From assembly GCF_045037415.1 (NCBI RefSeq), contig NZ_CP173438.1: a stretch of DNA of 64,000 bases. The stretch is one strand, 5' to 3'. The position numbers and the translations under genes are program-made. Positions 8,531-58,087 of the stretch are shown here, in pieces (position 1 is the stretch's first letter; every line of letters starts with the position of its first letter). Source of the stretch: Escherichia coli (GTDB lineage Bacteria > Pseudomonadota > Gammaproteobacteria > Enterobacterales > Enterobacteriaceae). Below the pieces are notes generated by a model. The model searched no databases and was not told the DNA's origin. It was given only the letters and a program-made list of their open reading frames with translations.

Positions 8531-9715
8531 TTAATTCAACCGCTCAATCACCATCGCAATTCCCTGGCCGCCACCAATGCATAGTGTTGCCAGCCCCAGC
8601 GTTTTATCGCGTGCCTGCATTGCATGTAATAGTGTGACCAGAATACGAGCACCACTGGCACCGATAGGATGTCCGAGCGCGATGGCCCCGCCGTTGACAT
8701 TCACTTTCTCAGGATCAAAGCCCAGGGTTTTCCCAACGGCAAGGAACTGTGCAGCAAATGCTTCATTAGCCTCAATGAGATCAATATCCGCCAGTTGCAG
8801 CCCCGCCAGTTGTAACGCTTTTTGCGTAGCAGGTACTGGCCCCATACCCATCAATGCGGGGGGCACGCCACCGCTGGCATAACTTTTAATGCGTGCCAGG
8901 GGATTCAGGCCTGCTGCCAGCGCCGCAGATTCTTCCATAATCACCAGAGCGGCAGCACCGTCGTTAATACCTGACGCGTTCCCGGCGGTGACTGTTCCTG
9001 CTTTATCGAAGGCCGGGCGCAATGCGCCTAACGCTTCAGCCGTAGAATCCGCTTTCGGGAATTCGTCTTGACTGAAGACGAAGGTTTTCTTCCGGGTGAC
9101 AACATTTACCGGGACGATTTCGGCTGTAAAAGCACCGGACTCAATTGCGGCTGCCGCTTTACGCTGTGAATGTAGCGCCAGTTCATCCTGCATTTCACGG
9201 GTAATTCCGTACTCTTTAGCCACGTTTTCGGCGGTAATCCCCATATGATAACCATGGGTGGCGCACATCAGGCCATCGCGCAGGATTACGTCATAAACCT
9301 GTCCGTCTCCAAGACGATAACCAGAGCGTGCTTTTGCATCGAGTAAGTAGGGCGCTAAACTCATATTTTCCATACCCCCCGCCACAATGCTCTGTGCCTG
9401 ACCTGCCTGAATCGCCTGTGCAGCAAGCGCCACGCTTTTCAGACCTGAACCGCACACTTTGTTGACCGTGAATCCGCACACCGTTTCAGCTAGTCCGCTT
9501 TTTAGCAGCGCCTGACGTGCCGGATTTTGCCCCAGTCCGGCTTGCAACACGTTACCCATAATCACTTCATCAACGTGTAGTGAATCGATTTTTGCACGTT
9601 CAATGGCGGCTTTAATTACTGTCGCCCCCAGGTCGATGGCGCTGGTGGAAGCGAGTGAACCGTTAAAACTACCGATAGCAGTACGTACCGCACTGACGAT
9701 GACACAATTTTTCAT
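8531..9715 (-). CDS. atoB: acetyl-CoA acetyltransferase (thiolase II)
   Basis: 394-aa ORF; N-terminus [21 protein letters not shown] and thiolase-like sequence throughout; ato operon synteny. Confidence 0.95.
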
Positions 9716-9745
9716 TTTATATTCCTTCTGTCTGTAGGGTTGCCG

Positions 9746-11068
9746 TCAGAACAGCGTTAAACCAATGACGAAAATGACGCCGGAGAAGAGCAGGGCAGTG
9801 ATGCAATAGCCCATGATGTCGCGGACACCGAGTCCGGCGATTGCCAGTGCTGGCAGCGCCCAGAACGGTTGTGCCATGTTCATCCATTGCTCGCCGTAGG
9901 CGATCGCCATTACCGATTTACCGAGATCAGCGCCCAGCGCCTGGGCTGCGGGCATCACGAACGGCCCCTGAATAACCCAGTGCCCGCCGCCAGACGGAAC
10001 GGCGAAGTTAATCAGTGCAGAACTAAAAAAGGTCATGACCGGGAAGGTGTCTTTGTTCGCAACATTGATGAAGAATTCGGTAATGAGTCCGCCCAGACCG
10101 GAGTGCTCCATCATCAGTTGGATCCCCGCGTAGAAGGGGAATTGCACCAGAATACCGGCGGTACTGCGTGCTGCCGCGCTGATAGCACGCATATAAGCCA
10201 TTGGCGTTTTATGTAGCAGCAGACCCGCAATCATAAACATCAGGTTGACGGTATTGATGGTGATGTTGAAGCCATGTTCGCTGAAGTACATCGCCAGGTA
10301 AGCGATACCGAGTGCGCCGATGATCAACGTCAGAATGCGGCTTTCTTCCAGTCGCTCGGACGGTGGAGCATCTTTCGGTAGTTGCTTTTGAAAATCAGCC
10401 TCTTCCATGAGTAGTTTCGGATCGATACTCACCACGTCAGACGGTTTTGGCATCATCATGCGGGTGATAAATGGCATCACCACAATCAACGCCACAGTGA
10501 TGAAAATATTAAAACCACTGAACAGAGTATCGCCCACCGGGATCAGCCCAGCGATATGCTCAACCGGGTTGCCCGGTGTTGCAGCCAACAGAGGCATTGA
10601 GCCAGAGAAGCCGCCACCCCAGGTGAGAAAACCAATGTAGGCGCAGGCAATGAGCAACGGATAATCAGAACCGGGTACTCGCCGGGCGACTTCACGGGCG
10701 AACATTGCACCGACAACCAAACCAAATCCCCAGTTGATGACACAAGCGACTGAACCGAAGAAAGTAACCAGCATGACGCCCTGTACGGGCGTCTTTGCGG
10801 CGGAGGCGGCAGTACGCAGCAAACTTTTCACCGGAGCGGAGCTGGCAAGGGCATGACCGGTAACGATGATAAGCGCCATCTGCATACCAAACGCCAGCAA
10901 GTTCCAGAAACCGTCACCCCACATTTTCACCATGCTGATCGGCGTTTGTGGTGTTAACCAAAGCGCGATCACGAATGTTAGCAATGTCAGCAACATGGCA
11001 AAGATCAGTGGATCGGGAAGCCACCGGCTGACAAAACGCGTCATAAAACGCGATATGCGACCAATCAT
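9746..11068 (-). CDS. atoE: short-chain fatty acid transporter
   Basis: 440-aa hydrophobic multi-pass membrane ORF between atoA and atoB. Confidence 0.9.
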   Translation of the reverse strand: MIGRISRFMTRFVSRWLPDPLIFAMLLTLLTFVIALWLTPQTPISMVKMWGDGFWNLLAFGMQMALIIVTGHALASSAPVKSLLRTAASAAKTPVQGVMLVTFFGSVACVINWGFGLVVGAMFAREVARRVPGSDYPLLIACAYIGFLTWGGGFSGSMPLLAATPGNPVEHIAGLIPVGDTLFSGFNIFITVALIVVMPFITRMMMPKPSDVVSIDPKLLMEEADFQKQLPKDAPPSERLEESRILTLIIGALGIAYLAMYFSEHGFNITINTVNLMFMIAGLLLHKTPMAYMRAISAAARSTAGILVQFPFYAGIQLMMEHSGLGGLITEFFINVANKDTFPVMTFFSSALINFAVPSGGGHWVIQGPFVMPAAQALGADLGKSVMAIAYGEQWMNMAQPFWALPALAIAGLGVRDIMGYCITALLFSGVIFVIGLTLF

Positions 11069-12572: not shown

Positions 12573-13958
12573 TTATACATCCGCCGGATCGATACCGTAT
12601 TCCTGGAGTTTATACATCAATGCACGGCGACTGATGCCCAGCATTAAAGCAGTGCGGGTTCGGTTTCCTTCTTGTTGTTCCAGCACTTCCATAATGATGC
12701 GTTTTTCGACGCGTTTAATTTCCTCTTTTAAATTACGCTCACCGACAGGGGCTGTTTTTGCTTCACCAGCATTACAGACTGGCTGACGAATCTGCGGCGG
12801 AAGATCCTCAGAAAAAATGATCGGGCCTGAATTCATCACGACGGCGCGTTCAATAACGTTGGAAAGCTCTCGAATATTTCCCGGCCATGACCAGGCGGTA
12901 AGCAGTGACATTGCCATCGGATCGATGTCGATAATATCGCGCTGATTCTCACTACTGAATTTTTGCAAAAAGTGATTAGCTAACAGGGAAATATCTTCCC
13001 GGCGATCGCGCAGAGGCGGCAGTATTAAATGAATAACGTTAAGGCGATAAAAGAGATCTTCACGGAAGGTGCCTTCTTTCACCATTGCCTGCAAGTCGCG
13101 GTTGGTGGCAGCAATGACGCGGATATCAACTTTTATGGTCTGATGGCCGCCAATCCGTTCAAATTCCCGTTCCTGCAGAATGCGTAGTAATTTGGCTTGC
13201 AGTACCAGCGGCATTTCGCCAATTTCGTCGAGGAGCAGAGTACCTTCGTTGGCACGTTCAAATAATCCCTGACGCAAGGTTTGTGCACCAGTAAATGCAC
13301 CTTTTTCATGACCAAACAGTTCACTTTCGAGCAACGATTCCGGCAGTGCCGCGCAGTTGACTTTAATGAACGGCCCCTTTGCCCGCCGCGAATTGTAGTG
13401 AATCGCTCTGGCAATCAACTCTTTCCCGGTGCCGCTTTCACCGCTAATCAAGACGCTGGCCTGAGAAAGGGCAATTTTGGCGGTGTCTTTGCAGATGTCC
13501 ATCATCGCCGGGCTGTTGGTGAGAATGTGCCCCCATTGCCAGCTGGTGCTCAGTGCCTGGTGCAGATGACGGATCTCTTTTTTCATTGACTGGAGTTGTA
13601 AAGCGCGCTGAACGATTAAATTCAACTCATCGAGATCAAACGGTTTGATAACATAGTCGAAGGCTCCGCAGCGTAGTGCTTCGACGGCGGTTTCCACTTC
13701 AGCATAGGCCGTCATCAGAATAACGGGTGTCCGGGTCTCATGGCTGCGCATCTCCTTTAGTGCCTTGATGCCGTCCATCTCTGGCATGCGGATATCCATC
13801 AACACCACGTCAGGGTGAATATCGGCAAACAGGTGTAATGCTGTGCGCCCGTTGTTCGCACAATGTGTTTCGAATCCTTGTAGTGCAAAAGCGGTGCTCA
13901 GCATACGGCGAACATTATCTTCATCATCCACAATAAGGATGCGATTAATAGCAGTCAT
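12573..13958 (-). CDS. atoC: sigma-54-dependent response regulator AtoC
   Basis: 461-aa ORF; receiver domain (IVDDEDNVR...), AAA+ sigma-54 activator motifs (GESGTGKE, GAFTGA), C-terminal helix-turn-helix. Confidence 0.95.
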   Translation of the reverse strand: MTAINRILIVDDEDNVRRMLSTAFALQGFETHCANNGRTALHLFADIHPDVVLMDIRMPEMDGIKALKEMRSHETRTPVILMTAYAEVETAVEALRCGAFDYVIKPFDLDELNLIVQRALQLQSMKKEIRHLHQALSTSWQWGHILTNSPAMMDICKDTAKIALSQASVLISGESGTGKELIARAIHYNSRRAKGPFIKVNCAALPESLLESELFGHEKGAFTGAQTLRQGLFERANEGTLLLDEIGEMPLVLQAKLLRILQEREFERIGGHQTIKVDIRVIAATNRDLQAMVKEGTFREDLFYRLNVIHLILPPLRDRREDISLLANHFLQKFSSENQRDIIDIDPMAMSLLTAWSWPGNIRELSNVIERAVVMNSGPIIFSEDLPPQIRQPVCNAGEAKTAPVGERNLKEEIKRVEKRIIMEVLEQQEGNRTRTALMLGISRRALMYKLQEYGIDPADV

Positions 13959-15947: not shown

Positions 15948-18797
15948 TTGAAATACCTTGCTTCTTTTCGTACAACCCTGAAAGCCTCGCGCTACATGTT
16001 CAGAGCATTGGCGTTAGTGCTCTGGCTGTTGATTGCTTTTTCATCCGTTTTTTACATCGTTAATGCGTTACATCAGCGAGAATCGGAAATTCGTCAGGAA
16101 TTTAATCTGAGTTCCGATCAGGCTCAGCGCTTTATTCAACGCACCTCTGATGTGATGAAAGAGCTGAAGTACATAGCTGAAAATCGCTTATCGGCAGAAA
16201 ACGGTGTGCTTTCCCCGCGTGGACGAGAAACGCAGACGGATGTGCCTGCGTTTGAACCGCTGTTTGCTGACTCTGATTGTTCCGCAATGAGTAACACCTG
16301 GCGAGGTTCTCTGGAGTCATTGGCGTGGTTTATGCGCTACTGGCGCGATAATTTTTCTGCGGCTTACGATCTAAACCGGGTATTTTTAATCGGCAGCGAT
16401 AACCTCTGCATGGCCAATTTCGGTCTGCGTGATATGCCAGTGGAACGCGATACCGCGCTAAAAGCTTTGCATGAACGCATTAATAAATATCGAAATGCAC
16501 CACAAGATGATAGTGGCAGTAACCTCTACTGGATCAGCGAAGGTCCGCGCCCTGGCGTCGGGTATTTTTACGCCTTGACGCCAGTTTATCTGGCGAACCG
16601 GTTGCAGGCGCTTTTGGGTGTCGAGCAAACCATCCGGATGGAGAACTTTTTCTTACCTGGTACGTTGCCGATGGGGGTTACCATTCTTGATGAAAATGGT
16701 CATACCCTGATTTCGCTTACCGGACCAGAAAGCAAAATTAAGGGCGATCCTCGCTGGATGCAGGAACGCTCCTGGTTTGGCTATACGGAAGGGTTCCGGG
16801 AACTGGTGCTGAAGAAAAATCTGCCACCCTCATCGCTAAGCATCGTTTATTCAGTGCCAGTTGATAAGGTGCTGGAACGCATTCGCATGTTGATCCTTAA
16901 CGCAATTTTGCTGAATGTGCTTGCCGGAGCTGCATTGTTTACTCTCGCGCGGATGTACGAGCGGCGTATTTTCATTCCGGCGGAAAGCGACGCCCTGCGA
17001 CTGGAAGAACATGAGCAGTTTAATCGCAAGATTGTCGCCTCCGCGCCAGTGGGTATCTGCATTTTGCGTACCGCTGATGGCGTCAATATTTTAAGTAACG
17101 AACTGGCGCATACTTATCTCAATATGCTTACGCATGAGGACCGCCAACGGCTGACACAAATTATCTGTGGGCAGCAGGTCAATTTTGTTGATGTCCTGAC
17201 CAGCAACAATACCAATCTGCAAATCAGCTTCGTCCATTCGCGCTATCGTAATGAAAACGTGGCCATTTGTGTGCTGGTGGATGTTTCTTCGCGCGTGAAG
17301 ATGGAAGAGTCGTTGCAGGAGATGGCACAAGCAGCGGAACAGGCGAGCCAGTCAAAATCGATGTTCCTGGCCACCGTCAGTCATGAGCTGCGAACGCCGC
17401 TGTATGGCATTATCGGTAACCTGGATCTGTTGCAAACCAAAGAGTTACCGAAAGGCGTCGATCGTCTGGTGACGGCAATGAACAACTCTTCCAGCCTGTT
17501 GTTGAAAATTATCAGCGATATTCTCGATTTCTCGAAAATTGAATCAGAACAGTTGAAGATCGAACCGCGTGAGTTTTCACCGCGTGAAGTGATGAACCAC
17601 ATCACCGCCAACTATTTACCGCTGGTGGTACGCAAGCAGTTAGGCTTGTACTGCTTTATTGAACCGGATGTGCCAGTGGCCTTAAATGGCGACCCGATGC
17701 GTTTACAGCAGGTCATCTCCAACCTGTTGAGTAACGCCATAAAATTCACCGATACCGGCTGTATAGTTTTGCATGTTCGCGCTGATGGCGATTATCTCTC
17801 TATCCGTGTTCGCGATACCGGCGTGGGGATACCGGCGAAAGAAGTGGTGCGCTTGTTTGATCCCTTCTTCCAGGTCGGAACGGGCGTACAGCGTAACTTC
17901 CAGGGGACTGGTCTGGGTCTGGCGATTTGTGAAAAACTGATCAGCATGATGGACGGCGACATCTCGGTAGATTCAGAACCGGGAATGGGCAGCCAGTTTA
18001 CCGTGCGTATTCCGTTATACGGCGCTCAGTACCCGCAGAAAAAAGGTGTGGAAGGGTTGAGTGGTAAACGCTGCTGGCTGGCGGTCCGCAATGCGTCGCT
18101 CTGTCAGTTCCTGGAAACCAGTTTGCAGCGCAGCGGCATCGTCGTTACAACATACGAAGGGCAGGAACCGACTCCCGAAGATGTGTTAATTACTGACGAG
18201 GTAGTGAACAAAAAATGGCAGGGCAGAGCGGTAGTGACCTTCTGTCGTCGCCATATTGGTATTCCGCTGGAGAAAGCGCCAGGGGAGTGGGTACATAGTG
18301 TGGCTGCTCCGCATGAGCTACCGGCATTGTTGGCGCGTATTTATTTGATCGAGATGGAGAGCGACGATCCTGCTAACGCTCTGCCGTCGACGGACAAAGC
18401 GGTCAGCGATAATGACGATATGATGATTCTGGTCGTGGATGATCATCCGATTAACCGGCGTCTGCTGGCAGATCAGTTGGGATCGTTGGGCTATCAATGT
18501 AAAACCGCGAATGATGGCGTCGATGCGCTTAATGTACTTAACAAGAATCATATTGATATCGTGCTTAGCGACGTCAATATGCCAAATATGGATGGTTACC
18601 GCTTGACGCAACGCATTCGTCAGTTGGGACTGACGTTGCCGGTAATCGGAGTAACTGCTAATGCGTTGGCTGAAGAGAAGCAGCGGTGTCTGGAGTCCGG
18701 TATGGACAGCTGCCTGTCGAAGCCGGTAACGCTGGATGTGATAAAACAGACGCTGACGGTATATGCCGAGAGGGTCAGGAAATCGCGGGAATCGTAG
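15948..18797 (+). CDS. rcsC: hybrid sensor histidine kinase RcsC
   Basis: 949-aa ORF, TTG start; N-terminus MKYLASFRTTLK; histidine kinase plus C-terminal receiver domain (ILVVDDHPINRRL). Confidence 0.95.
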   Translation: MKYLASFRTTLKASRYMFRALALVLWLLIAFSSVFYIVNALHQRESEIRQEFNLSSDQAQRFIQRTSDVMKELKYIAENRLSAENGVLSPRGRETQTDVPAFEPLFADSDCSAMSNTWRGSLESLAWFMRYWRDNFSAAYDLNRVFLIGSDNLCMANFGLRDMPVERDTALKALHERINKYRNAPQDDSGSNLYWISEGPRPGVGYFYALTPVYLANRLQALLGVEQTIRMENFFLPGTLPMGVTILDENGHTLISLTGPESKIKGDPRWMQERSWFGYTEGFRELVLKKNLPPSSLSIVYSVPVDKVLERIRMLILNAILLNVLAGAALFTLARMYERRIFIPAESDALRLEEHEQFNRKIVASAPVGICILRTADGVNILSNELAHTYLNMLTHEDRQRLTQIICGQQVNFVDVLTSNNTNLQISFVHSRYRNENVAICVLVDVSSRVKMEESLQEMAQAAEQASQSKSMFLATVSHELRTPLYGIIGNLDLLQTKELPKGVDRLVTAMNNSSSLLLKIISDILDFSKIESEQLKIEPREFSPREVMNHITANYLPLVVRKQLGLYCFIEPDVPVALNGDPMRLQQVISNLLSNAIKFTDTGCIVLHVRADGDYLSIRVRDTGVGIPAKEVVRLFDPFFQVGTGVQRNFQGTGLGLAICEKLISMMDGDISVDSEPGMGSQFTVRIPLYGAQYPQKKGVEGLSGKRCWLAVRNASLCQFLETSLQRSGIVVTTYEGQEPTPEDVLITDEVVNKKWQGRAVVTFCRRHIGIPLEKAPGEWVHSVAAPHELPALLARIYLIEMESDDPANALPSTDKAVSDNDDMMILVVDDHPINRRLLADQLGSLGYQCKTANDGVDALNVLNKNHIDIVLSDVNMPNMDGYRLTQRIRQLGLTLPVIGVTANALAEEKQRCLESGMDSCLSKPVTLDVIKQTLTVYAERVRKSRES

Positions 18798-18995
18798 GAC
18801 GGATAAGGTGTTTATGCCGCATCTGGCATTCAGTGCAAATGCCAGATGCGACGCTGACGCGTCTTATCTGGCCTACTTTAATGTAATCTGTTGAAATAAT
18901 GGGAATCGTAGGACGGATAAGGCGTTTACGCCGCATCCGGCAATCCGTGCAAATGCCAGATAAGACACTGACGCGTCTTATCTGGCCTACAGGTG
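18786..18995. repeat. REP/BIME tandem (two ~100-bp units)
   Basis: Two near-identical units each starting GGGAATCGTAGGACGGATAAGG and containing palindromic GCCGGATG / GCCAGATAAGACGCGTCAG REP motifs; the first unit overlaps the last codons of rcsC. Confidence 0.7.
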
Positions 18996-18996
18996 A

Positions 18997-19647
18997 TTAG
19001 TCTTTATCTGCCGGACTCAACGTCACAGAAGAGAGATAATTCAGCAGAGCAATATCGTTCTCGACACCCAGCTTCATCATCGCAGATTTCTTCTGGCTAC
19101 TGATGGTTTTAATACTGCGGTTCAGCTTTTTAGCGATCTCGGTCACCAGGAAGCCTTCCGCAAACAGGCGCAGAACTTCACTCTCTTTTGGCGAGAGACG
19201 CTTGTCACCGTAACCACCAGCACTGATTTTTTCCAACAGGCGAGAAACGCTTTCCGGGGTAAATTTCTTCCCTTTCTGCAGCGCGGCGAGAGCCTTCGGC
19301 AAATCGGTCGGTGCACCTTGTTTCAGCACGATCCCTTCGATATCCAGATCCAATACCGCACTAAGAATCGCCGGGTTGTTGTTCATGGTCAGAACAATGA
19401 TCGACAGGCTTGGGAAATGGCGCTTGATGTACTTGATTAAGGTAATGCCATCACCGTACTTATCGCCAGGCATGGAGAGATCGGTAATCAACACATGCGC
19501 ATCCAGTTTCGGCAGATTGTTGATCAGTGCTGTAGAGTCTTCAAATTCGCCGACAACATTCACCCACTCAATTTGCTCAAGTGATTTGCGAATACCGAAC
19601 AAGACTATCGGATGGTCATCGGCAATAATTACGTTCATATTGTTCAT
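18997..19647 (-). CDS. rcsB: response regulator RcsB
   Basis: ORF track 18997..19692; native start MNNMNVIIADDH at 19647 (216 aa); LuxR-type helix-turn-helix at the C-terminus. Confidence 0.95.
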   Translation of the reverse strand: MNNMNVIIADDHPIVLFGIRKSLEQIEWVNVVGEFEDSTALINNLPKLDAHVLITDLSMPGDKYGDGITLIKYIKRHFPSLSIIVLTMNNNPAILSAVLDLDIEGIVLKQGAPTDLPKALAALQKGKKFTPESVSRLLEKISAGGYGDKRLSPKESEVLRLFAEGFLVTEIAKKLNRSIKTISSQKKSAMMKLGVENDIALLNYLSSVTLSPADKD

Positions 19648-19663
19648 GTAATAGGCTACCTTG

Positions 19664-22336
19664 CTACAGCAAGCTCTTGACATAACTGTCAATGTCGCTG
19701 ATGTATTTTTCTATTCCTGGAACATCCTTCTCACGAATCAGATGTTCCAGCGTTTCACATAACTGCTTGCCGGGTACCAGATTTAGCATGGCAAATACGC
19801 CTTTAAGACGATGAGCCGTTTGGGCTAACGCAGCAAAGTCGCTGGTTGCTGCTTCAGTATATAGCCTCTTAACATCATCCGGTACTGTGTCTACAAAGAG
19901 CGCATAATAGCCGCTGGCATGGAGTTGCGCATTTTCATCTCCGCCCAGAGGCGATTCTGTCACCTCTTCCTGCGCCAGTTGCACTTCAATTAATTGTAAG
20001 ACCGCTTCCTGCATAGCGTTGCTCATATTGAAATTGACGCACAATTGACCAGGCCCAATTTCCCGTACGCCAGACTCATCATCGCTTAAAAGCAAGCCAG
20101 AGGCAGTAAGATTAGACGGATTATCCGTTAAAAAGATATCATAATCTTGACTAATTAATCTTTCATCGGGTGTGATACAGGTTGCACCCCAATTTTCTAA
20201 CTGGCGAGTGACAATATTCCGAATTTCTGCCGAAGTAACATCCACCATTACGCAGACATCATCCAGTAATCGCTCTTCTTCCTCTTCAACTTCCGGGTCA
20301 GCTGCGAGCATTTTGATATGCACAGAGTAGCGTGTACCAAGCCCATCCCGCGTTTTGATGTTTAAATGACCGCCCAGTTTACGCGCCAGTTGATCGCTCA
20401 GCCAGAATGCCAGCGGGTCCGCCTTGCCATAGCGATCGTTTTGGGTCTGGTTGATAAACGGGAAGTGCAAATTATCCATTTCATGAATGCTTACGCCTTC
20501 TCCAGTGTCCAGAATGCGGAACGTCAGGCGGTCTTCGGAGGACTCATCCTGATCAACCTCAAGGGTGATTTTTCCTAATTGCGTTGAGGTCACGGCATAT
20601 TGCATCAGTAGCAGCAAAATACGTCGTAAGGCATCGCGATCGCCGCGGCGCATATCGTGTGCTTTCAGATGATTGTTAATCAGCAGTTGCAGACCTTTAC
20701 GCTTGATGGCAGGCAACACTGAAGGCACTACTTCATCAATTAAATCCTGCACGGAGAACAGCTCCGTCTCACTTTTCCAGCTATCGTCCGCAAGCATGTT
20801 CGCTAACTGTATTTCATCGACCAGTCGCACCAGCACATCAGCCTGATTCGCCAGTTGTTTGCCTTCCGGGGCGTTGAGTTTAGCCGCGCTCTCCGCCAGG
20901 GACTGTGCGGGTTCTTTCAGCGCATCGCCAATGTTTTTCATAAAGGTCATCCGCCCCTGCTGGTTTTTCTCATACAGACGCTGCGCCTGCTTGAGTTTCT
21001 TGTTTACCAGCACTTCGCGATCCTGATCGCGAATAATGAAAATTTGTGTGCGCGGCGCAACCTGGCTGCGGAACATGCGGATCTCATACAGCTCGTTATT
21101 GATCGTCGCCTGAATAATCCCCTGATGCTGTTCCGCCATGGTGGTGATGTTTTGCAGATTCAAATGCGGCAGCAAATGATCGGCAATTTTGTTACTTATG
21201 ACTGTGCGGTTTGATTCCTGATCGTGAACCAGCAGGCCGAGCGGCAGCAGTGAGACTATCTCTTCATTAATTGCCCGTAAAATGCGCAATTCGTTATTGA
21301 CCGCCGTGCTGGGGACGCTTTCTGTACTGCGGCTGGAGAAATGGCGGAATGTGGTATAGCCAAATAACGCCAGCGCCAGCAAACCGATGTTCAGCAGCAG
21401 TGGCAGCAGAATGTTTTGCAACGTATCCAGCAGTAAGGTGCCGTAAGGAACCTGCCAGACCAGGCGCATATCGGTAGAGTTGAGTGCCGAGGAGATTTCA
21501 ATCTTCGTACTGTTAAAGTGGATACTGACGCTATCCGTCCCTTCTTTCTCATTTTCATTGTTTCCCGTTGCCGTCGCGTCTGGCTCAAGGCGGAAACTGT
21601 CCAGCGGCATACCCGGTGGGATCAAATCATTAATCGGCAGATCAAAAGCCACGACCGTTGCCAGATGTCCCGGCTGGTTGAACGTGGTACGCAAGGTAAA
21701 GTAATGACCGTTCTGCCAGGCCAGGCGGCGCATGTTAGAAAAACTTTCGCGTTCATCGAGGGCGTTGGCCTGTTGCAACATCTCTGCACGACGTGAATCA
21801 ACAATGTCGCTGACGGTCGATTCTTTAAATCCGGAGGTGAGATCTTTGAGGGGCAGGGTTGAGATCAGCACCAGACTGTTATCCTGACCATTCAGGTAAT
21901 ACATCGACCACGGTACATTTTCTGCGCCCCACAATGTGTCCAGATAGGTGGACATCCGTTGAGTCATCTCAAGCGTTGAGTTGTCGTGAGAGCCAAAGAT
22001 TAACGCTTCCGTTTTGCGGCGTGGTTTCTCCAGATAGTAGACATCCTGTTTCAGGCGCGTCTCTTGTAAACCTTCGCCGGAGGAGGGGGAGGTCGTCGCG
22101 GCAATGTTGTCGTAGATCTGCCAGGTCACGTAACGCCAGGTATCGACGCGCTTTTGGATTGCGTGGGTAATGTCGACAATCTGGTAACTTTTATCTTTCA
22201 GCCAGGCGTTAACGGCGCTTTGTACCATTACACCCATCGTCACCAGTAACACAATGATCAACAGTAAAAAGAAGCGGGTAATGCTCCCCGGTAGGAGTGA
22301 AAAGCGGGTCGTGGCCGTTGTCTCTTTCTGACGCAT
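19664..22336 (-). CDS. rcsD: phosphotransfer intermediate protein RcsD
   Basis: 890-aa ORF; N-terminus MRQKETTATTRFSLLPGS; membrane-anchored, histidine-kinase-like with a C-terminal Hpt domain; upstream of rcsB. Confidence 0.95.
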   Translation of the reverse strand: MRQKETTATTRFSLLPGSITRFFLLLIIVLLVTMGVMVQSAVNAWLKDKSYQIVDITHAIQKRVDTWRYVTWQIYDNIAATTSPSSGEGLQETRLKQDVYYLEKPRRKTEALIFGSHDNSTLEMTQRMSTYLDTLWGAENVPWSMYYLNGQDNSLVLISTLPLKDLTSGFKESTVSDIVDSRRAEMLQQANALDERESFSNMRRLAWQNGHYFTLRTTFNQPGHLATVVAFDLPINDLIPPGMPLDSFRLEPDATATGNNENEKEGTDSVSIHFNSTKIEISSALNSTDMRLVWQVPYGTLLLDTLQNILLPLLLNIGLLALALFGYTTFRHFSSRSTESVPSTAVNNELRILRAINEEIVSLLPLGLLVHDQESNRTVISNKIADHLLPHLNLQNITTMAEQHQGIIQATINNELYEIRMFRSQVAPRTQIFIIRDQDREVLVNKKLKQAQRLYEKNQQGRMTFMKNIGDALKEPAQSLAESAAKLNAPEGKQLANQADVLVRLVDEIQLANMLADDSWKSETELFSVQDLIDEVVPSVLPAIKRKGLQLLINNHLKAHDMRRGDRDALRRILLLLMQYAVTSTQLGKITLEVDQDESSEDRLTFRILDTGEGVSIHEMDNLHFPFINQTQNDRYGKADPLAFWLSDQLARKLGGHLNIKTRDGLGTRYSVHIKMLAADPEVEEEEERLLDDVCVMVDVTSAEIRNIVTRQLENWGATCITPDERLISQDYDIFLTDNPSNLTASGLLLSDDESGVREIGPGQLCVNFNMSNAMQEAVLQLIEVQLAQEEVTESPLGGDENAQLHASGYYALFVDTVPDDVKRLYTEAATSDFAALAQTAHRLKGVFAMLNLVPGKQLCETLEHLIREKDVPGIEKYISDIDSYVKSLL

Positions 22337-23059: not shown

Positions 23060-24196
<1,137 letters not shown>

Positions 24197-32274: not shown

Positions 32275-32527
32275 CTGGCAAGTTTGCAGCCTGGTCGTGC
32301 AGGCCAAAAGCGAACGAATTTCAGACATCAGCACCCAACTGAACGCCTTTACCGGCTGTGAAGTTGCTGTCAGCGACGCGCCGAGCGGTCAGTTGATTGT
32401 GGTGGTGGAAGCAGAAGACAGCGAAACGCTGATCCAAACCATTGAGTCAGTACGCAACGTAGAGGGCGTGCTGGCGGTGTCGCTGGTTTATCACCAGCAG
32501 GAAGAGCAAGGTGAGGAAACACCATGA
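32264..32527 (+). CDS. napD: NapA chaperone NapD
   Basis: 87-aa ORF overlapping napF by 11 nt; its stop overlaps the native napA ATG (ATGA at 32524-32527). Confidence 0.9.
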   Translation: MHTNWQVCSLVVQAKSERISDISTQLNAFTGCEVAVSDAPSGQLIVVVEAEDSETLIQTIESVRNVEGVLAVSLVYHQQEEQGEETP

Positions 32528-32563
32528 AACTCAGTCGTCGTAGCTTTATGAAAGCTAACGCCG

Positions 32564-35011
32564 TTGCGGCCGCTGCGGCGGCTGCCGGTTCTCAGCGTGC
32601 CGGGCGTTGCCCGCGCCGTTGTTGGTCAGCAGGAAGCCATTAAATGGGATAAAGCGCCGTGCCGTTTCTGCGGTACGGGTTGCGGCGTTCTGGTCGGAAC
32701 GCAGCAGGGGCGTGTGGTGGCTTGTCAGGGCGACCCGGACGCACCGGTTAACCGTGGCCTGAACTGCATTAAGGGCTATTTCCTGCCCAAAATCATGTAC
32801 GGTAAAGACCGTTTGACGCAGCCGCTGCTGCGTATGAAAAACGGTAAATATGATAAAGAAGGCGAATTTACCCCAATCACCTGGGATCAGGCCTTCGATG
32901 TGATGGAAGAGAAATTCAAAACCGCCCTGAAAGAAAAAGGGCCGGAATCGATCGGTATGTTCGGTTCTGGTCAGTGGACTATCTGGGAAGGTTATGCCGC
33001 GTCCAAGCTGTTTAAAGCGGGCTTCCGTTCGAACAACATCGACCCGAACGCGCGTCACTGTATGGCGTCGGCAGTAGTTGGCTTTATGCGTACCTTTGGT
33101 ATGGATGAGCCGATGGGCTGCTATGACGACATCGAGCAGGCTGACGCGTTTGTGCTGTGGGGCGCAAACATGGCGGAGATGCACCCGATCCTCTGGTCGC
33201 GCATCACTAACCGTCGTCTCTCTAACCAGAACGTTACCGTGGCGGTGCTTTCTACCTACCAGCATCGTAGCTTCGAGCTGGCGGATAACGGCATCATCTT
33301 TACGCCGCAATCTGACCTGGTGATCCTGAACTATATCGCCAACTATATCATTCAAAACAATGCGATAAATCAGGACTTCTTCAGCAAACACGTTAACCTG
33401 CGCAAAGGGGCGACGGACATCGGCTACGGTTTACGTCCGACCCATCCGCTGGAAAAAGCAGCGAAGAATCCGGGTTCTGACGCCTCCGAACCGATGAGCT
33501 TTGAAGATTACAAAGCCTTCGTTGCTGAATATACGCTGGAAAAAACCGCCGAAATGACCGGCGTGCCGAAAGACCAGTTAGAACAACTGGCGCAGCTGTA
33601 TGCCGATCCGAACAAGAAAGTCATCTCCTACTGGACGATGGGCTTCAACCAGCATACCCGTGGTGTGTGGGCCAACAACCTGGTCTACAACCTGCACCTG
33701 CTGACCGGCAAAATTTCCCAGCCGGGTTGCGGTCCGTTCTCCCTGACCGGGCAGCCTTCCGCGTGTGGTACTGCGCGTGAAGTGGGCACCTTTGCTCACC
33801 GTCTGCCTGCGGACATGGTGGTGACTAACGAGAAACATCGTGATATTTGCGAGAAGAAGTGGAATATCCCGAGTGGCACCATTCCGGCGAAAATCGGTCT
33901 GCACGCGGTGGCACAAGACCGTGCGCTGAAAGACGGCAAACTGAATGTTTACTGGACCATGTGTACCAATAACATGCAGGCCGGACCGAACATTAATGAA
34001 GAGCGTATGCCGGGCTGGCGCGATCCGCGCAACTTTATCATCGTTTCCGATCCATATCCGACGGTCAGTGCGCTGGCAGCGGACTTGATCCTGCCGACCG
34101 CAATGTGGGTAGAGAAAGAGGGGGCTTACGGTAATGCCGAACGCCGTACTCAGTTCTGGCGTCAGCAGGTACAGGCACCGGGTGAAGCAAAATCGGATCT
34201 CTGGCAGTTAGTTCAGTTCTCCCGTCGCTTCAAAACTGAAGAAGTGTGGCCGGAAGAGCTGCTGGCTAAGAAACCGGAACTGCGTGGCAAAACGCTGTAT
34301 GAGGTTCTGTATGCCACTCCGGAAGTGAGCAAATTCCCGGTATCCGAACTGGCGGAAGATCAGCTGAACGACGAATCTCGCGAGCTGGGCTTCTATCTGC
34401 AAAAAGGGTTGTTCGAAGAGTACGCATGGTTTGGTCGCGGTCACGGTCACGATCTCGCGCCGTTCGATGATTACCACAAAGCACGCGGTCTGCGCTGGCC
34501 GGTGGTGAACGGTAAAGAAACGCAGTGGCGTTACAGCGAAGGTAACGACCCGTACGTGAAAGCGGGCGAAGGCTACAAGTTCTACGGTAAACCGGATGGC
34601 AAAGCGGTGATCTTCGCGCTGCCGTTCGAACCTGCGGCGGAAGCGCCGGATGAAGAGTACGACCTGTGGCTCTCTACCGGACGCGTCCTGGAGCACTGGC
34701 ATACCGGCAGTATGACTCGCCGTGTACCGGAACTGCACCGCGCCTTCCCGGAAGCGGTTCTGTTTATTCACCCGCTGGATGCGAAAGCGCGCGATCTGCG
34801 CCGTGGCGACAAAGTGAAAGTGGTTTCTCGCCGTGGCGAAGTGATCTCGATTGTCGAAACGCGCGGTCGTAACCGTCCGCCGCAGGGCCTGGTGTACATG
34901 CCGTTCTTCGACGCCGCACAGCTGGTTAACAAACTGACGCTGGATGCGACCGATCCGCTCTCGAAAGAGACGGACTTCAAGAAGTGCGCGGTCAAACTGG
35001 AGAAGGTGTAA
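32564..35011 (+). CDS. napA: periplasmic nitrate reductase catalytic subunit NapA; Tat signal region frameshifted as given
   Basis: 815-aa ORF from TTG 32564 carries the 4Fe-4S motif CRFCGTGC and the molybdopterin domain; the native ATG at 32524 encodes the twin-arginine signal [22 protein letters not shown] in a different frame that stops at about 32641. Confidence 0.85.
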
Positions 35012-38257: not shown

Positions 38258-38916
38258 TGTTCTGGCGCATTTTCCGTCTTGAGCTGCGCGTAGCGTTTCG
38301 CCACAGCGCCGAAATCGCCAACCCGCTGTGGTTCTTCCTGATTGTCATTACCCTTTTTCCGCTCAGTATCGGTCCGGAGCCGCAACTGCTGGCGCGTATT
38401 GCGCCGGGTATTATCTGGGTTGCCGCGCTGCTTTCATCCTTGCTGGCACTCGAGCGACTGTTCCGTGACGATTTGCAGGACGGCAGTCTTGAACAATTGA
38501 TGTTGTTGCCGTTACCCTTGCCCGCCGTTGTGCTGGCGAAGGTGATGGCGCACTGGATGGTAACCGGTCTGCCGTTACTCATCCTTTCGCCCCTGGTAGC
38601 AATGCTACTGGGAATGGATGTTTATGGCTGGCAAGTGATGGCGTTAACGCTACTGCTGGGAACCCCTACGCTTGGCTTTCTTGGTGCGCCGGGCGTGGCG
38701 CTGACAGTGGGACTTAAGCGCGGTGGTGTGCTGCTCAGCATACTGGTGTTACCGCTGACTATCCCATTACTCATCTTTGCCACCGCCGCGATGGACGCGG
38801 CTTCTATGCATTTGCCCGTTGATGGGTATCTGGCAATTTTAGGCGCGTTGCTGGCAGGCACCGCGACATTAAGTCCTTTTGCGACGGCGGCAGCGTTACG
38901 AATCAGCATTCAATAA
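38254..38916 (+). CDS. ccmB: heme exporter membrane protein CcmB
   Basis: 220-aa hydrophobic ORF overlapping ccmA by 4 nt. Confidence 0.95.
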
Positions 38917-38957
38917 CGCTGGATTACTGATTTTTGTTCGAGTCTGGTATCGAAACT

Positions 38958-39695
38958 ATGTGGAAAACACTGCATCAACTGGCGATCCCACCACGGCTGT
39001 ATCAAATCTGTGGCTGGTTTATACCGTGGCTGGCAATTGCCAGTGTGGTCGTGCTTACCGTCGGCTGGATCTGGGGGTTCGGCTTTGCTCCGGCTGATTA
39101 TCAGCAGGGAAATAGCTACCGCATTATCTACCTGCATGTGCCTGCGGCGATCTGGTCGATGGGCATTTATGCATCAATGGCGGTGGCGGCGTTTATTGGC
39201 CTTGTCTGGCAGATGAAAATGGCCAACCTGGCGGTGGCGGCGATGGCCCCCATTGGTGCCGTGTTTACCTTTATTGCCCTGGTTACCGGCTCTGCATGGG
39301 GAAAACCGATGTGGGGCACCTGGTGGGTATGGGATGCACGTCTGACTTCTGAACTGGTGCTGCTGTTTCTGTATGTTGGTGTCATTGCCCTGTGGCACGC
39401 CTTCGACGACCGTCGTCTGGCTGGGCGTGCGGCAGGTATCCTGGTGCTGATTGGCGTGGTGAATCTGCCGATTATTCATTACTCCGTAGAGTGGTGGAAC
39501 ACCCTGCATCAGGGATCAACGCGAATGCAGCAAAGTATCGATCCGGCGATGCGTTCGCCGCTGCGCTGGTCGATTTTGGGCTTCCTGCTCCTGTCTGCCA
39601 CGCTGACGCTGATGCGGATGCGTAATTTGATTTTGCTGATGGAAAAACGCCGTCCGTGGGTGAGTGAACTGATACTGAAAAGAGGCCGTAAATGA
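38958..39695 (+). CDS. ccmC: heme exporter protein CcmC
   Basis: ORF track 38934..39695; native start MWKTLHQL at 38958 (245 aa); WGxxWxWD tryptophan-rich motif (WGTWWVWD). Confidence 0.95.
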   Translation: MWKTLHQLAIPPRLYQICGWFIPWLAIASVVVLTVGWIWGFGFAPADYQQGNSYRIIYLHVPAAIWSMGIYASMAVAAFIGLVWQMKMANLAVAAMAPIGAVFTFIALVTGSAWGKPMWGTWWVWDARLTSELVLLFLYVGVIALWHAFDDRRLAGRAAGILVLIGVVNLPIIHYSVEWWNTLHQGSTRMQQSIDPAMRSPLRWSILGFLLLSATLTLMRMRNLILLMEKRRPWVSELILKRGRK

Positions 39696-55966: not shown

Positions 55967-56992
55967 CTACACCGCCTTATTAGGATCAAATGCGTCGCGG
56001 ACGGCTTCACCAATAAAGATCAGCAAAGACAACAATATCGCCACCGATAAGAAGGCGGTGATCCCAAGCCACGGGGCCTGAAGGTTATTTTTCCCTTGTA
56101 ACAGGAGTTCGCCGAGTGACGGTGAACCGAGCGGCAGACCGAAGCCGAGGAAATCGAGTGAGGTCAGGGTGGTTATCGAACTACATAAAATAAACGGTAA
56201 AAAAGTGAGGGTAGCGACCATGGCATTTGGCAACATATGACGCAGGATGATACTGCGATCGCTGACGCCAAGCGCCTGCGCCGCGCGGATGTAGTCGAAA
56301 TTACGGGTACGTAAAAACTCCGCCCGCACCACGCCGACCAGACTCATCCAGCCAAACAAGACAGTAATTGCCAGCAGCCACCAGAAGTTAGGCTGTACGA
56401 CGCTGGAAAGTAAAATAATCAAAAACAGCGTCGGCATCCCCGACCATACTTCAATAAAACGTTGCCCCCAGAGATCGACTTTACCACCGTAATAGCCTTG
56501 TAGCGCCCCCGCCAGCACACCCATCACGCTGGAGCAGAGGGTCAGCATCAGGCCAAACAGAACTGAGATCCGCGTGCCATAGAGAATGCGCGCCAGCACA
56601 TCGCCGCCATTGGCATCCGTTCCCAGCCAGTTTTGCCGGGAGGGTGGAGAAGGGAAGGGCTTATCGGTAGCAAAGTTGATACTGGTAGCACCAAAGCGAA
56701 TCGGTGCCCACAGTACCCAGCCGTTATTTTCCAGTCGTTGTTTCAGCCACGGGTCCTGATAATCAGCCTGACTTGCCAGCGGGCCGCCAAAATCGCTTTC
56801 GCTGTAGTTTTTCAACAACGGGAAATACCAACTGCCGTCATAACGCACCAGCAACGGTTTATCGTTGGCGATAAGTTCAGAACACAAACTCAAACCAAAC
56901 AAGAGGAGGAAAATCCATAACGACCAGTAGCCGCGACGGTTATGGCGAAAACGCGCCCAACGGGCCTGATTGACGGGGCTGAGTCGCGACAT
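55967..56992 (-). CDS. yejE: ABC transporter permease YejE
   Basis: 341-aa membrane ORF of the oligopeptide-permease family. Confidence 0.9.
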   Translation of the reverse strand: MSRLSPVNQARWARFRHNRRGYWSLWIFLLLFGLSLCSELIANDKPLLVRYDGSWYFPLLKNYSESDFGGPLASQADYQDPWLKQRLENNGWVLWAPIRFGATSINFATDKPFPSPPSRQNWLGTDANGGDVLARILYGTRISVLFGLMLTLCSSVMGVLAGALQGYYGGKVDLWGQRFIEVWSGMPTLFLIILLSSVVQPNFWWLLAITVLFGWMSLVGVVRAEFLRTRNFDYIRAAQALGVSDRSIILRHMLPNAMVATLTFLPFILCSSITTLTSLDFLGFGLPLGSPSLGELLLQGKNNLQAPWLGITAFLSVAILLSLLIFIGEAVRDAFDPNKAV

Positions 56993-58087
56993 TAACGTCC
57001 CTCAAAGTCTATACGCGGATCGACCAGCGTATAGCTGATATCACTGACAATATTCAGCAGCAGGCCAATCAGGGTGAAAATATACAAGGTACCAAACATT
57101 ACAGGATAATCGCGCGAGACGGTCGCTTCGTAGCCCAGTAAGCCAAGACCATTGAGTGAAAACATCACCTCAATCAGCAGCGAGCCGGTAAAAAACATGC
57201 TGATAAACGTCGCCGGAAAACCGGCAATCACCAGCAGCATGGCGTTGCGGAACACATGTTTCCAGAGAATATTTTTTTCACTTACCCCTTTCGCACGTGC
57301 CGTCACCACGTATTGCTTACGCACTTCATCAAGGAATGAGTTTTTTGTCAGCATGGTCAGAGCCGCAAAGCCGCCAATCACTGTCGCCAGCACCGGCAGC
57401 GTGATATGCCACAGATAATCGGTGATTTTCTGATACCACGGCAGCGAATCAAAGTTAGCGGAAACCAGGCCGCGCAGAGGGAACAGATCGAAATAGCTGC
57501 CGCCCGCGAAGAAGACAATCAGCAGGATGGCAAACAAAAAGGCCGGAATGGCGTAGCCGATGATGATAAATGCACTACTCCAGACGTCAAAACGGCTCCC
57601 ATTATAAACAGCTTTGCGAATGCCTAACGGAATCGACACCAGATAGATAATCAGCGTGCTCCACAATCCGAGGGTGATGGAGAACCGGCAGACTGTCTTT
57701 AATCAGCGTCAGCACCGAGGCGCTGCGAAAAAGGCTGTCGCCAAAATCAAAACGGATGTAGTCCCAGAGCATTTTGAAGTAACGTTCGTGGATCGGCTTA
57801 TCGAAACCGTAGCGATGAGTGATCTCGGCGATCACTTCTGGATCTAATCCGCGTCCGCCACGGTAATTACTGTCGCTGATATTGCCGACGCCCGTTTGCG
57901 CATGGCTGGCGCGAACACCTTCACCGCCTGCGCCGGGTAATACTCCGGCATTGCCAAACTCAATGGCGGCGATGGCCTGGTCGACCGGACCGCCAGGCGC
58001 AATTTGCACGATGAAAAAGTTGATAGTGATAATCGCCCATAGCGTTGGGATCACCAGCAACAGACGGCGGATCAGATAAGCGCCCAT
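56992..58087 (-). pseudogene. yejB: ABC transporter permease YejB, interrupted by an apparent +1 frameshift
   Basis: Two ORFs in different frames (57602..58087 N-terminal, 56992..57666 C-terminal) that together give a 364-aa permease; frames meet at about 57680-57686. Confidence 0.8.

Follow-up and report, generated by a model that had tools for sequence, protein, structure and literature searches.

An apparent napA frameshift in an Escherichia coli ST131 assembly is very probably an artefact at a methylated Eco31I site

An extra base divides napA in the assembled sequence

We analysed a stretch of 64,000 nucleotides (nt), here called the window, from an Escherichia coli assembly (GCF_045037415.1, contig NZ_CP173438.1) that represents a sequence type 131 (ST131) genome, and asked what lies behind a break in the reading frame of its periplasmic nitrate reductase gene, napA. 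Reading the window sequence, we found the napA start codon (ATG at 32524) overlapping the stop of napD as ATGA. The frame opened by this ATG runs through 22 correct codons of the NapA signal peptide, continues with 17 out-of-frame residues and ends at a TAA at 32641-32643. The remainder of NapA lies in the +1 frame, which stays open to 35011 and whose earliest possible start is TTG 32564, for a product of 815 amino acids (aa); gene callers in public collections pick GTG 32597 rather than TTG 32564, for a product of 804 aa. The features at the locus are as follows.

32524..35011, plus strand: napA; 828 intact codons without the extra T, and as written a 39-aa stub followed by an 804/815-aa remainder.
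32524..32643, plus strand: 39-aa stub open reading frame (ORF), in all likelihood artefactual, holding the n- and h-regions of the twin-arginine translocation (Tat) signal plus the 17 out-of-frame residues; the exact product also occurs on NCBI, ENA and Logan contigs.
32587..32593, plus strand: hexamer with lesion, GGT[T]CTC, with 32589 or 32590 as the extra T, beside the position of a 5-methylcytosine (m5C) and opposite that of an N6-methyladenine (m6A), as placed by alignment to EC958, M217 and ER1709.
32589, plus strand: the napA difference itself, +T, turning GGTCTC into GGTTCTC.

A sequence-only reading of this DNA had proposed a frameshift at 32582-32593, and the early stop of the ATG 32524 frame, the +1 remainder to 35011 and the possible TTG 32564 start were all present as it described them. 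It had also named the extra base as a T in GCCGGT[T]CTCAGC, and here too alignment bears it out. The ancestral backgrounds EC958 and M217 read GCCGGTCTCAGC, and the window reads GCCGGTTCTCAGC; in codons, GCC-GGT-CTC-AGC stands in EC958, in the phylogroup-A-like M217 and in the K-12-like ER1709, and GCC-GGT-T-CTC-AGC in the window. Removing one T yields a continuous frame of 828 codons whose product is identical to EC958 NapA (WP_000778067.1). The two pieces are matched by the Pfam families TAT_signal, Molybdop_Fe4S4, Molybdopterin and Molydop_binding. In the repaired 828-aa ORF the S-R-R-x-F-x-K signal is contiguous with an enzyme of the molybdenum-bis(molybdopterin guanine dinucleotide)/[4Fe-4S] type, within a napFDAGHBC operon. 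We also considered whether the inserted base is a C relative to a GGTTTC ancestor, as strain Nissle reads GGTTTC at this point, and rejected this, the ST131 and M217 ancestors both reading GGTCTC.

Most differences from EC958 lie in GGTCTC/GAGACC hexamers

Between 24000 and 44000, no fewer than 40 other ST131 genomes, EC958 and JJ1886 among them, match the window at every base but one, their 20,000 nt standing against its 20,001. Alignment of the whole window to EC958 revealed five differences in 64,000 nt, and three of the five destroy a GGTCTC/GAGACC hexamer. The matching EC958 stretch holds five such hexamers, and the probability of finding at least three of five differences inside them is 1.0e-9. 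Beside the one in napA, the hexamers of the window are these.

46695..46700, minus strand: lesioned hexamer in yejM, GAGACC to GAAACC (GGTCTC to GGTTTC at the m5C position on the gene strand), by a G>A at 46697 that is synonymous (Val397).
57680..57686, minus strand: lesioned hexamer in yejB, GAG[A]ACC (GGT[T]CTC on the gene strand), by a +A at 57683 that turns GAGACC into GAGAACC and leaves yejB 'frameshifted'.
13734..13739, plus strand: GGTCTC hexamer, correctly read by alignment to EC958.
51632..51637, plus strand: GGTCTC hexamer, correctly read by alignment to EC958.

The insertions in napA and yejB sit in a common 11-mer context, CTGCCGGTCTC. yejB (gene at about 56992-58087) encodes a microcin C/peptide ATP-binding cassette transporter permease and, once the extra A is removed, a 364-aa protein identical to EC958 YejB; in the isolate Esc20 the gene carries a pseudogene flag from the Prokaryotic Genome Annotation Pipeline (PGAP). 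At the yejM hexamer, an insertion would falsely truncate the periplasmic domain of YejM.

Near-identical clone-mates disagree from site to site

To establish how widespread the napA insertion is, we used a 71-nt query with which only exact carriers could match at ≥99% and took the census over 5,420 complete E. coli genomes. The extra T was present in 17 of them, namely 15 'Esc' isolates from one ENA project, ECKH-100 (Taiwan) and 98212 (Egypt), and the other 5,403 have a single continuous napA frame at the site. Alignment to finished genomes, which the sequence-only reading had suggested as a check, likewise gave one continuous frame and no extra T in EC958 and others. Every carrier genome that we inspected bears the RefSeq/PGAP label of a 'frameshifted' napA pseudogene.

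The Esc genomes are near-identical (5,156,475-5,156,542 bp), and within them the lesions are scattered. The napA insertion is carried by Esc1, 2, 3, 6, 10, 12, 13, 14, 16, 17, 18, 19, 20, 25 and 28. The yejB insertion is carried by Esc1, 2, 4, 6, 7, 13, 14, 16, 19, 20, 25, 26, 27, 29 and 30, a set of 15 that overlaps the napA set and is not the same. The yejM G>A change occurs among the Esc genomes in Esc17 and Esc20 only, with insertion variants at that site in Esc4 and Esc13. Over all genomes, the yejB lesion was found in 19, and the change at the yejM GAAACC site in seven from several lineages, with insertion variants there in 446, Esc4 and Esc13. Counting the ancestral state, all four combinations of the napA and yejB lesions exist, a four-gamete violation within the Esc clone, so that mutations of single origin in a clone are excluded as their source.

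The clone-mates without the napA insertion do not simply show the ancestral sequence. In 11 of them the napA hexamer reads GGTTTC and not GGTCTC, which means that GGTTCTC in 15 Esc genomes stands beside GGTTTC in 11, with the yejB and yejM lesions in other subsets. Across 6,070 nt, Esc26 has that C>T as its sole difference from EC958; where it has T, the window and Esc10 have TC, and nothing else sets it apart from them. We examined whether the Esc26 GGTTTC could have come from Nissle by recombination and rejected this, since Esc26 has 61 single-nucleotide polymorphisms (SNPs) against Nissle and one against EC958. We infer from the alternating readings that the real sequence is still GGTCTC, because a site that had truly lost the motif would be unmethylated and hence read consistently.

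The lesions coincide with the bases modified by Eco31I methyltransferases

EC958 encodes a type IIS system identical to Eco31I, with the target GGTCTC/GAGACC (Forde et al., 2015; PMC4659465; earlier work on Eco31I by Bitinaite et al., 1992, as cited there). M1.EcoMI produces GAG-m6A-CC and M2.EcoMI is predicted to produce GGT-m5C-TC; the methyltransferases are conserved across ST131, and 100% of GAGACC sites were m6A-methylated in EC958, a figure for that strain and not for the window isolate (PMC4659465). The lesions reported here sit exactly at the Eco31I-modified positions of the hexamer, and recognition sequence, m5C position and m6A position all match. The system itself lies outside the window and would be the cause of the artefact, as distinct from the feature at 32582-32593.

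In EC958 the Eco31I locus adjoins mcrBC within the leuX island, outside the stretch equivalent to the window; it was not found at the start of the EC958 genome or in the hsd region. Among the Esc clone-mates, an intact Eco31I endonuclease is encoded in Esc20, and the two methyltransferase genes are present at 100% identity in Esc3 and Esc26; 98212 has all three Eco31I genes with identical proteins. Thus the m6A and m5C methyltransferases and the restriction endonuclease are found in EC958, Esc clone-mates and 98212. The system is confined to 633 of 5,426 genomes, about 12% of complete E. coli.

The same hexamers are altered in other regions and unrelated genomes

We compared a second region of 50 kb between Esc20 and EC958 and found three differences, each of them a C>T that falls on the m5C of a hexamer, with four of the seven hexamers intact (P = 5.9e-10). 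98212 belongs to another clade, and over 6.2 kb the napA base is all that separates it from its nearest relatives (M217, Sanji and others); the identical napA change would therefore have arisen at least twice. Against M217, 98212 shows five differences over 49.7 kb, two of them in hexamers (the napA +T and an intergenic GAGACC to GAACC), and one of the three hexamers is intact. Motif concentration thus recurs in all three comparisons (3/5, 3/3 and 2/5 differences), and when these are pooled, eight of 13 differences lie in hexamers (P about 1e-23). GGT[T]CTC is also what gives fecD of 98212 (18731-19688 of the region examined) its 'frameshifted' annotation; without the T, the gene encodes a FecD of 318 aa. 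The G lost from the 98212 GAGACC lies between ccmH and narP, at about 37464 of the region examined. Both lesions seem to share their origin with those of the window.

Lesions of the kinds seen in the window are present in further unrelated recent assemblies as well (98194, 439, 446, A1.S1.126, C25 and UID strains); recurrence in an Eco31I-positive genome refers to 98212. In assemblies of independent public runs the napA hexamer carries four distinct 1-nt insertions (GGT[T]CTC, GGT[G]CTC, GGTCT[T]C and GGTCTC[C]), the first of them on four backgrounds or more, among which are 98212 and two others from Logan. The E. coli contig_6913 of the ENA metagenome ERZ28760298 has the napA +T together with 19 gaps in 6 kb and fragmented mqo, eco and napG. 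Because this contig carries the insertion amid many indels, the stub peptide in protein collections comes in part from noisy long-read assemblies. We set aside the Logan and ENA contigs with the stub as independent short-read confirmation, on account of their platform, which need not be a short-read one, the indel-ridden state of the ENA contig and the other insertions that sister contigs have in the hexamer.

Two observations concern altered proteins elsewhere. WP_404998493.1 ('multidrug DMT transporter permease'), a RefSeq protein of recent issue, is common to Esc20 (38596-39600 of the region examined) and 98212 (8748-9752 of the region examined); its EC958 counterpart is WP_000471145.1 (26038-27042 of the region examined), and at the DNA level the two are separated by a hexamer C>T at EC958 position 4991554. 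sgcC of Esc20 (WP_029402181.1) is a similar case.

A search for the GGTTTC form of the napA hexamer returned 57 genomes. In the Eco31I-positive Nissle 1917/ATCC 25922 lineage this form, which encodes NapA L23F in the h-region of the Tat signal (in Nissle 1917 at about 3110 of the region examined), has been consistent in many independent assemblies since 2014; there, the Eco31I site seems to have been lost through a real C>T at the methylated cytosine. Where the Esc clone-mates, 98215, 447, C25 and the UID strains read GGTTTC too, an artefact is the probable cause.

A systematic misreading of methylated GGTCTC best accounts for the extra base

The motif confinement of the lesions, the inconsistency among clone-mates, the recurrence in unrelated Eco31I-positive genomes, the presence of the restriction-modification genes and the published methylation of the motif together lead us to hold, with high confidence, that the extra T came not from a mutation but from systematic error in the reads or the consensus at a methylated GGTCTC, and that napA is intact in the cell. 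The sequence-only reading had left two possibilities side by side, a real loss of Tat export and an assembly error; the confinement, disagreement and recurrence favour the second, and the first very probably does not hold. Judged from these alignments, the true napA sequence is most likely GGTCTC (Gly-Leu, codon 23), with NapA exported through Tat and functional.

The error most likely arose in nanopore basecalling or consensus building and was then annotated by PGAP as a pseudogene. In the mechanism that we propose, the two methyltransferases of the Eco31I-type system that this ST131 strain carries would modify every GGTCTC/GAGACC, giving GGT-m5C-TC and, on the opposite strand, GAG-m6A-CC, and on a platform that reads native DNA (presumably Oxford Nanopore) the modified bases would distort the signal. 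Basecalling at the m5C position might then yield C, T or both ('TC'), so that the consensus would become GGTCTC, GGTTTC or GGTTCTC, varying with site and run. At napA codon 23, the 'TC' outcome would add one base, splitting the gene on paper and earning it the PGAP label 'frameshifted'.

This proposal agrees in several respects with errors already reported for nanopore data. Assemblies from R10.4.1 flow cells contain methylation-induced purine/pyrimidine ambiguities, with RACC/GGTY among the affected motifs (Lohde et al., 2024; PMC11610573), and nanopore errors at modified sites are strand-specific (Liu et al., 2024; PMC11610603). Such errors in bacteria are specific to strain and motif, persist into assemblies and falsely separate outbreak isolates (PMC11610573; PMC11610603). 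As in those reports, the lesions described here are confined to strain-specific methylated motifs, place the ambiguity beside the modified base, are inconsistent between replicate genomes of an outbreak clone and create false allelic differences; the ambiguity GGT-C/T-TC, or GA-G/A-ACC on the other strand, has the same form as RACC/GGTY. They differ from the reported errors in two ways. In ST131 and the other Eco31I-positive lineages the affected motif is the Eco31I hexamer, which we did not find reported as an error motif. Besides substitutions, consensus sequences here often contain one base too many, 'TC' in place of C, and false frameshifts and PGAP pseudogenes result.

Several points weigh against an artefact. 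A duplication of T to TT is a perfectly possible spontaneous mutation. The +T is common to at least three submitters (the Esc series, ECKH-100 and 98212) and to Logan contigs of other runs, which taken alone would resemble independent confirmation. The sequencing platform of the carrier assemblies is our own deduction, as is the signal-level mechanism. Published reports of methylation errors mostly describe substitutions and not 1-nt insertions (PMC11610573), and our literature search found no paper tying Eco31I sites to errors of this kind. A search for papers describing ECKH-100 or the Esc isolates returned none that was usable.

Alternative explanations for the broken frame

The strongest competitor, which we nevertheless regard as improbable, is a real and heritable T insertion that inactivated napA in an ST131 subclone, leaving a 39-aa Tat-signal stub and a re-initiated product that stays in the cytoplasm. 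In its favour, spontaneous duplication of a single base is common, 17 of 5,420 complete genomes carry the extra T, deposited by no fewer than three submitters and with a pseudogene call from PGAP, and the exact stub product also appears on Logan and ENA contigs. On paper the locus resembles a genuine napA pseudogene, with its truncated 39-aa product and a remaining ORF that has no twin-arginine signal. However, a genuine pseudogene would have a single origin, be inherited in a nested fashion and read uniformly in clone-mates, and the napA lesion is neither nested nor uniform: it occurs on four or more backgrounds, the identical change appearing on unrelated ones (98212 and the two further Logan backgrounds), while other clone-mates have GGTTTC there instead and the subsets with yejB or yejM lesions are different ones. 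A real mutation would also have to coexist with the placement of eight of the 13 differences examined in one methylated 6-bp motif, and the window would have to contain another real frameshift that arose independently in yejB, inside the 11-mer that the two sites have in common.

Less probable still is that the lesions are real and arise by mutagenesis targeted to the motif. The m5C left by Eco31I methylation would then deaminate (C>T), or processing at Eco31I sites would be error-prone, and either would erode the sites in Eco31I-positive lineages and switch off genes such as napA, yejB and fecD. C>T at a methylated cytosine is the classical product of m5C deamination, and the stable GGTTTC (NapA L23F) of the Eco31I-carrying Nissle/ATCC 25922 indicates that the substitution does occur in nature. 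Yet about half of the sites would be 'mutated' in genomes that are otherwise 0-2 SNPs per 50-64 kb from EC958, and no known deamination hotspot comes within many orders of magnitude of the rate that this requires. Moreover, 1-nt insertions are not a possible outcome of deamination; repair after Eco31I cleavage, which falls outside the recognition site, would not leave scars inside the hexamer; and clone-mates disagree site by site.

Finally, we give almost no credence to a programmed +1 ribosomal frameshift of the prfB type that would still yield full-length exported NapA: the two overlapping frames that jointly encode one protein are all that speaks for it, the shift is not conserved (the continuous-frame allele being the norm, in 5,403 of 5,420 genomes), the same insertion also 'frameshifts' yejB and fecD, and inspection of 32564-32643 for a prfB-type signal (a stop-poised slippery codon and an upstream Shine-Dalgarno-like stimulator) revealed none.

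Consequences for napA and for Eco31I-positive assemblies

If the base were real, the cell would make a free 39-aa stub and a NapA re-initiated at TTG 32564 or GTG 32597, which would lack the twin-arginine motif, remain cytoplasmic and be cut off from NapB and NapC. The scenario of the sequence-only reading would then hold in outline, with recognition by NapD lost and napGHBC and ccm intact. Rho-dependent polarity, an established principle, may in that case also lower expression of napGHBC-ccm. Were the hexamer lesions real in general, which is improbable, Eco31I-positive E. coli would suffer very frequent C>T changes and +1 insertions at their own methylated GGTCTC, with rapid on/off switching of genes such as napA, yejB and fecD and a gradual erosion of restriction sites. 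As it is, the napA frameshift very probably does not exist in the bacterium; NapA of the ST131 isolate is most likely normal and exported, and no inference of lost periplasmic nitrate respiration is warranted.

The matter bears on data quality, since both Nissle 1917 and the pandemic clone ST131 are among the Eco31I carriers. Misreading of methylated hexamers has introduced several kinds of error into a number of recent RefSeq assemblies labelled 'complete': pseudogenes that are not real (napA, yejB, fecD), spurious missense alleles, protein accessions that are new (for instance WP_404998493.1, in two unrelated genomes), and false SNPs or indels between clone-mates. Errors of this kind can mislead surveys of pseudogenes and gene loss, core-genome multilocus sequence typing or outbreak typing, and pangenome analyses.

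Other differences and a pseudogene in the window

None of the RefSeq Esc genomes matches the window byte for byte. The window further differs from Esc20 at 108 (yfaA), 3900 (a gene of the alpha-2-macroglobulin family) and 23247 (ompC). The C>T changes at 108 and 3900 are specific to the window and the G>A at 23247 to Esc20, and all three are transitions at CpG. We searched around these positions for the ST131 motifs GATC, CCWGG, CANCATC, AACN4CTTT and RTACN4GTG and found none of them. Between narP and a tRNA-Pro gene, at 44922-45844, the window also contains a remnant of the yejO autotransporter gene that is frameshifted, truncated and interrupted by an internal stop. Unlike napA and yejB, this remnant is a real and ordinary ST131 pseudogene, because the same pseudogene is annotated in EC958.

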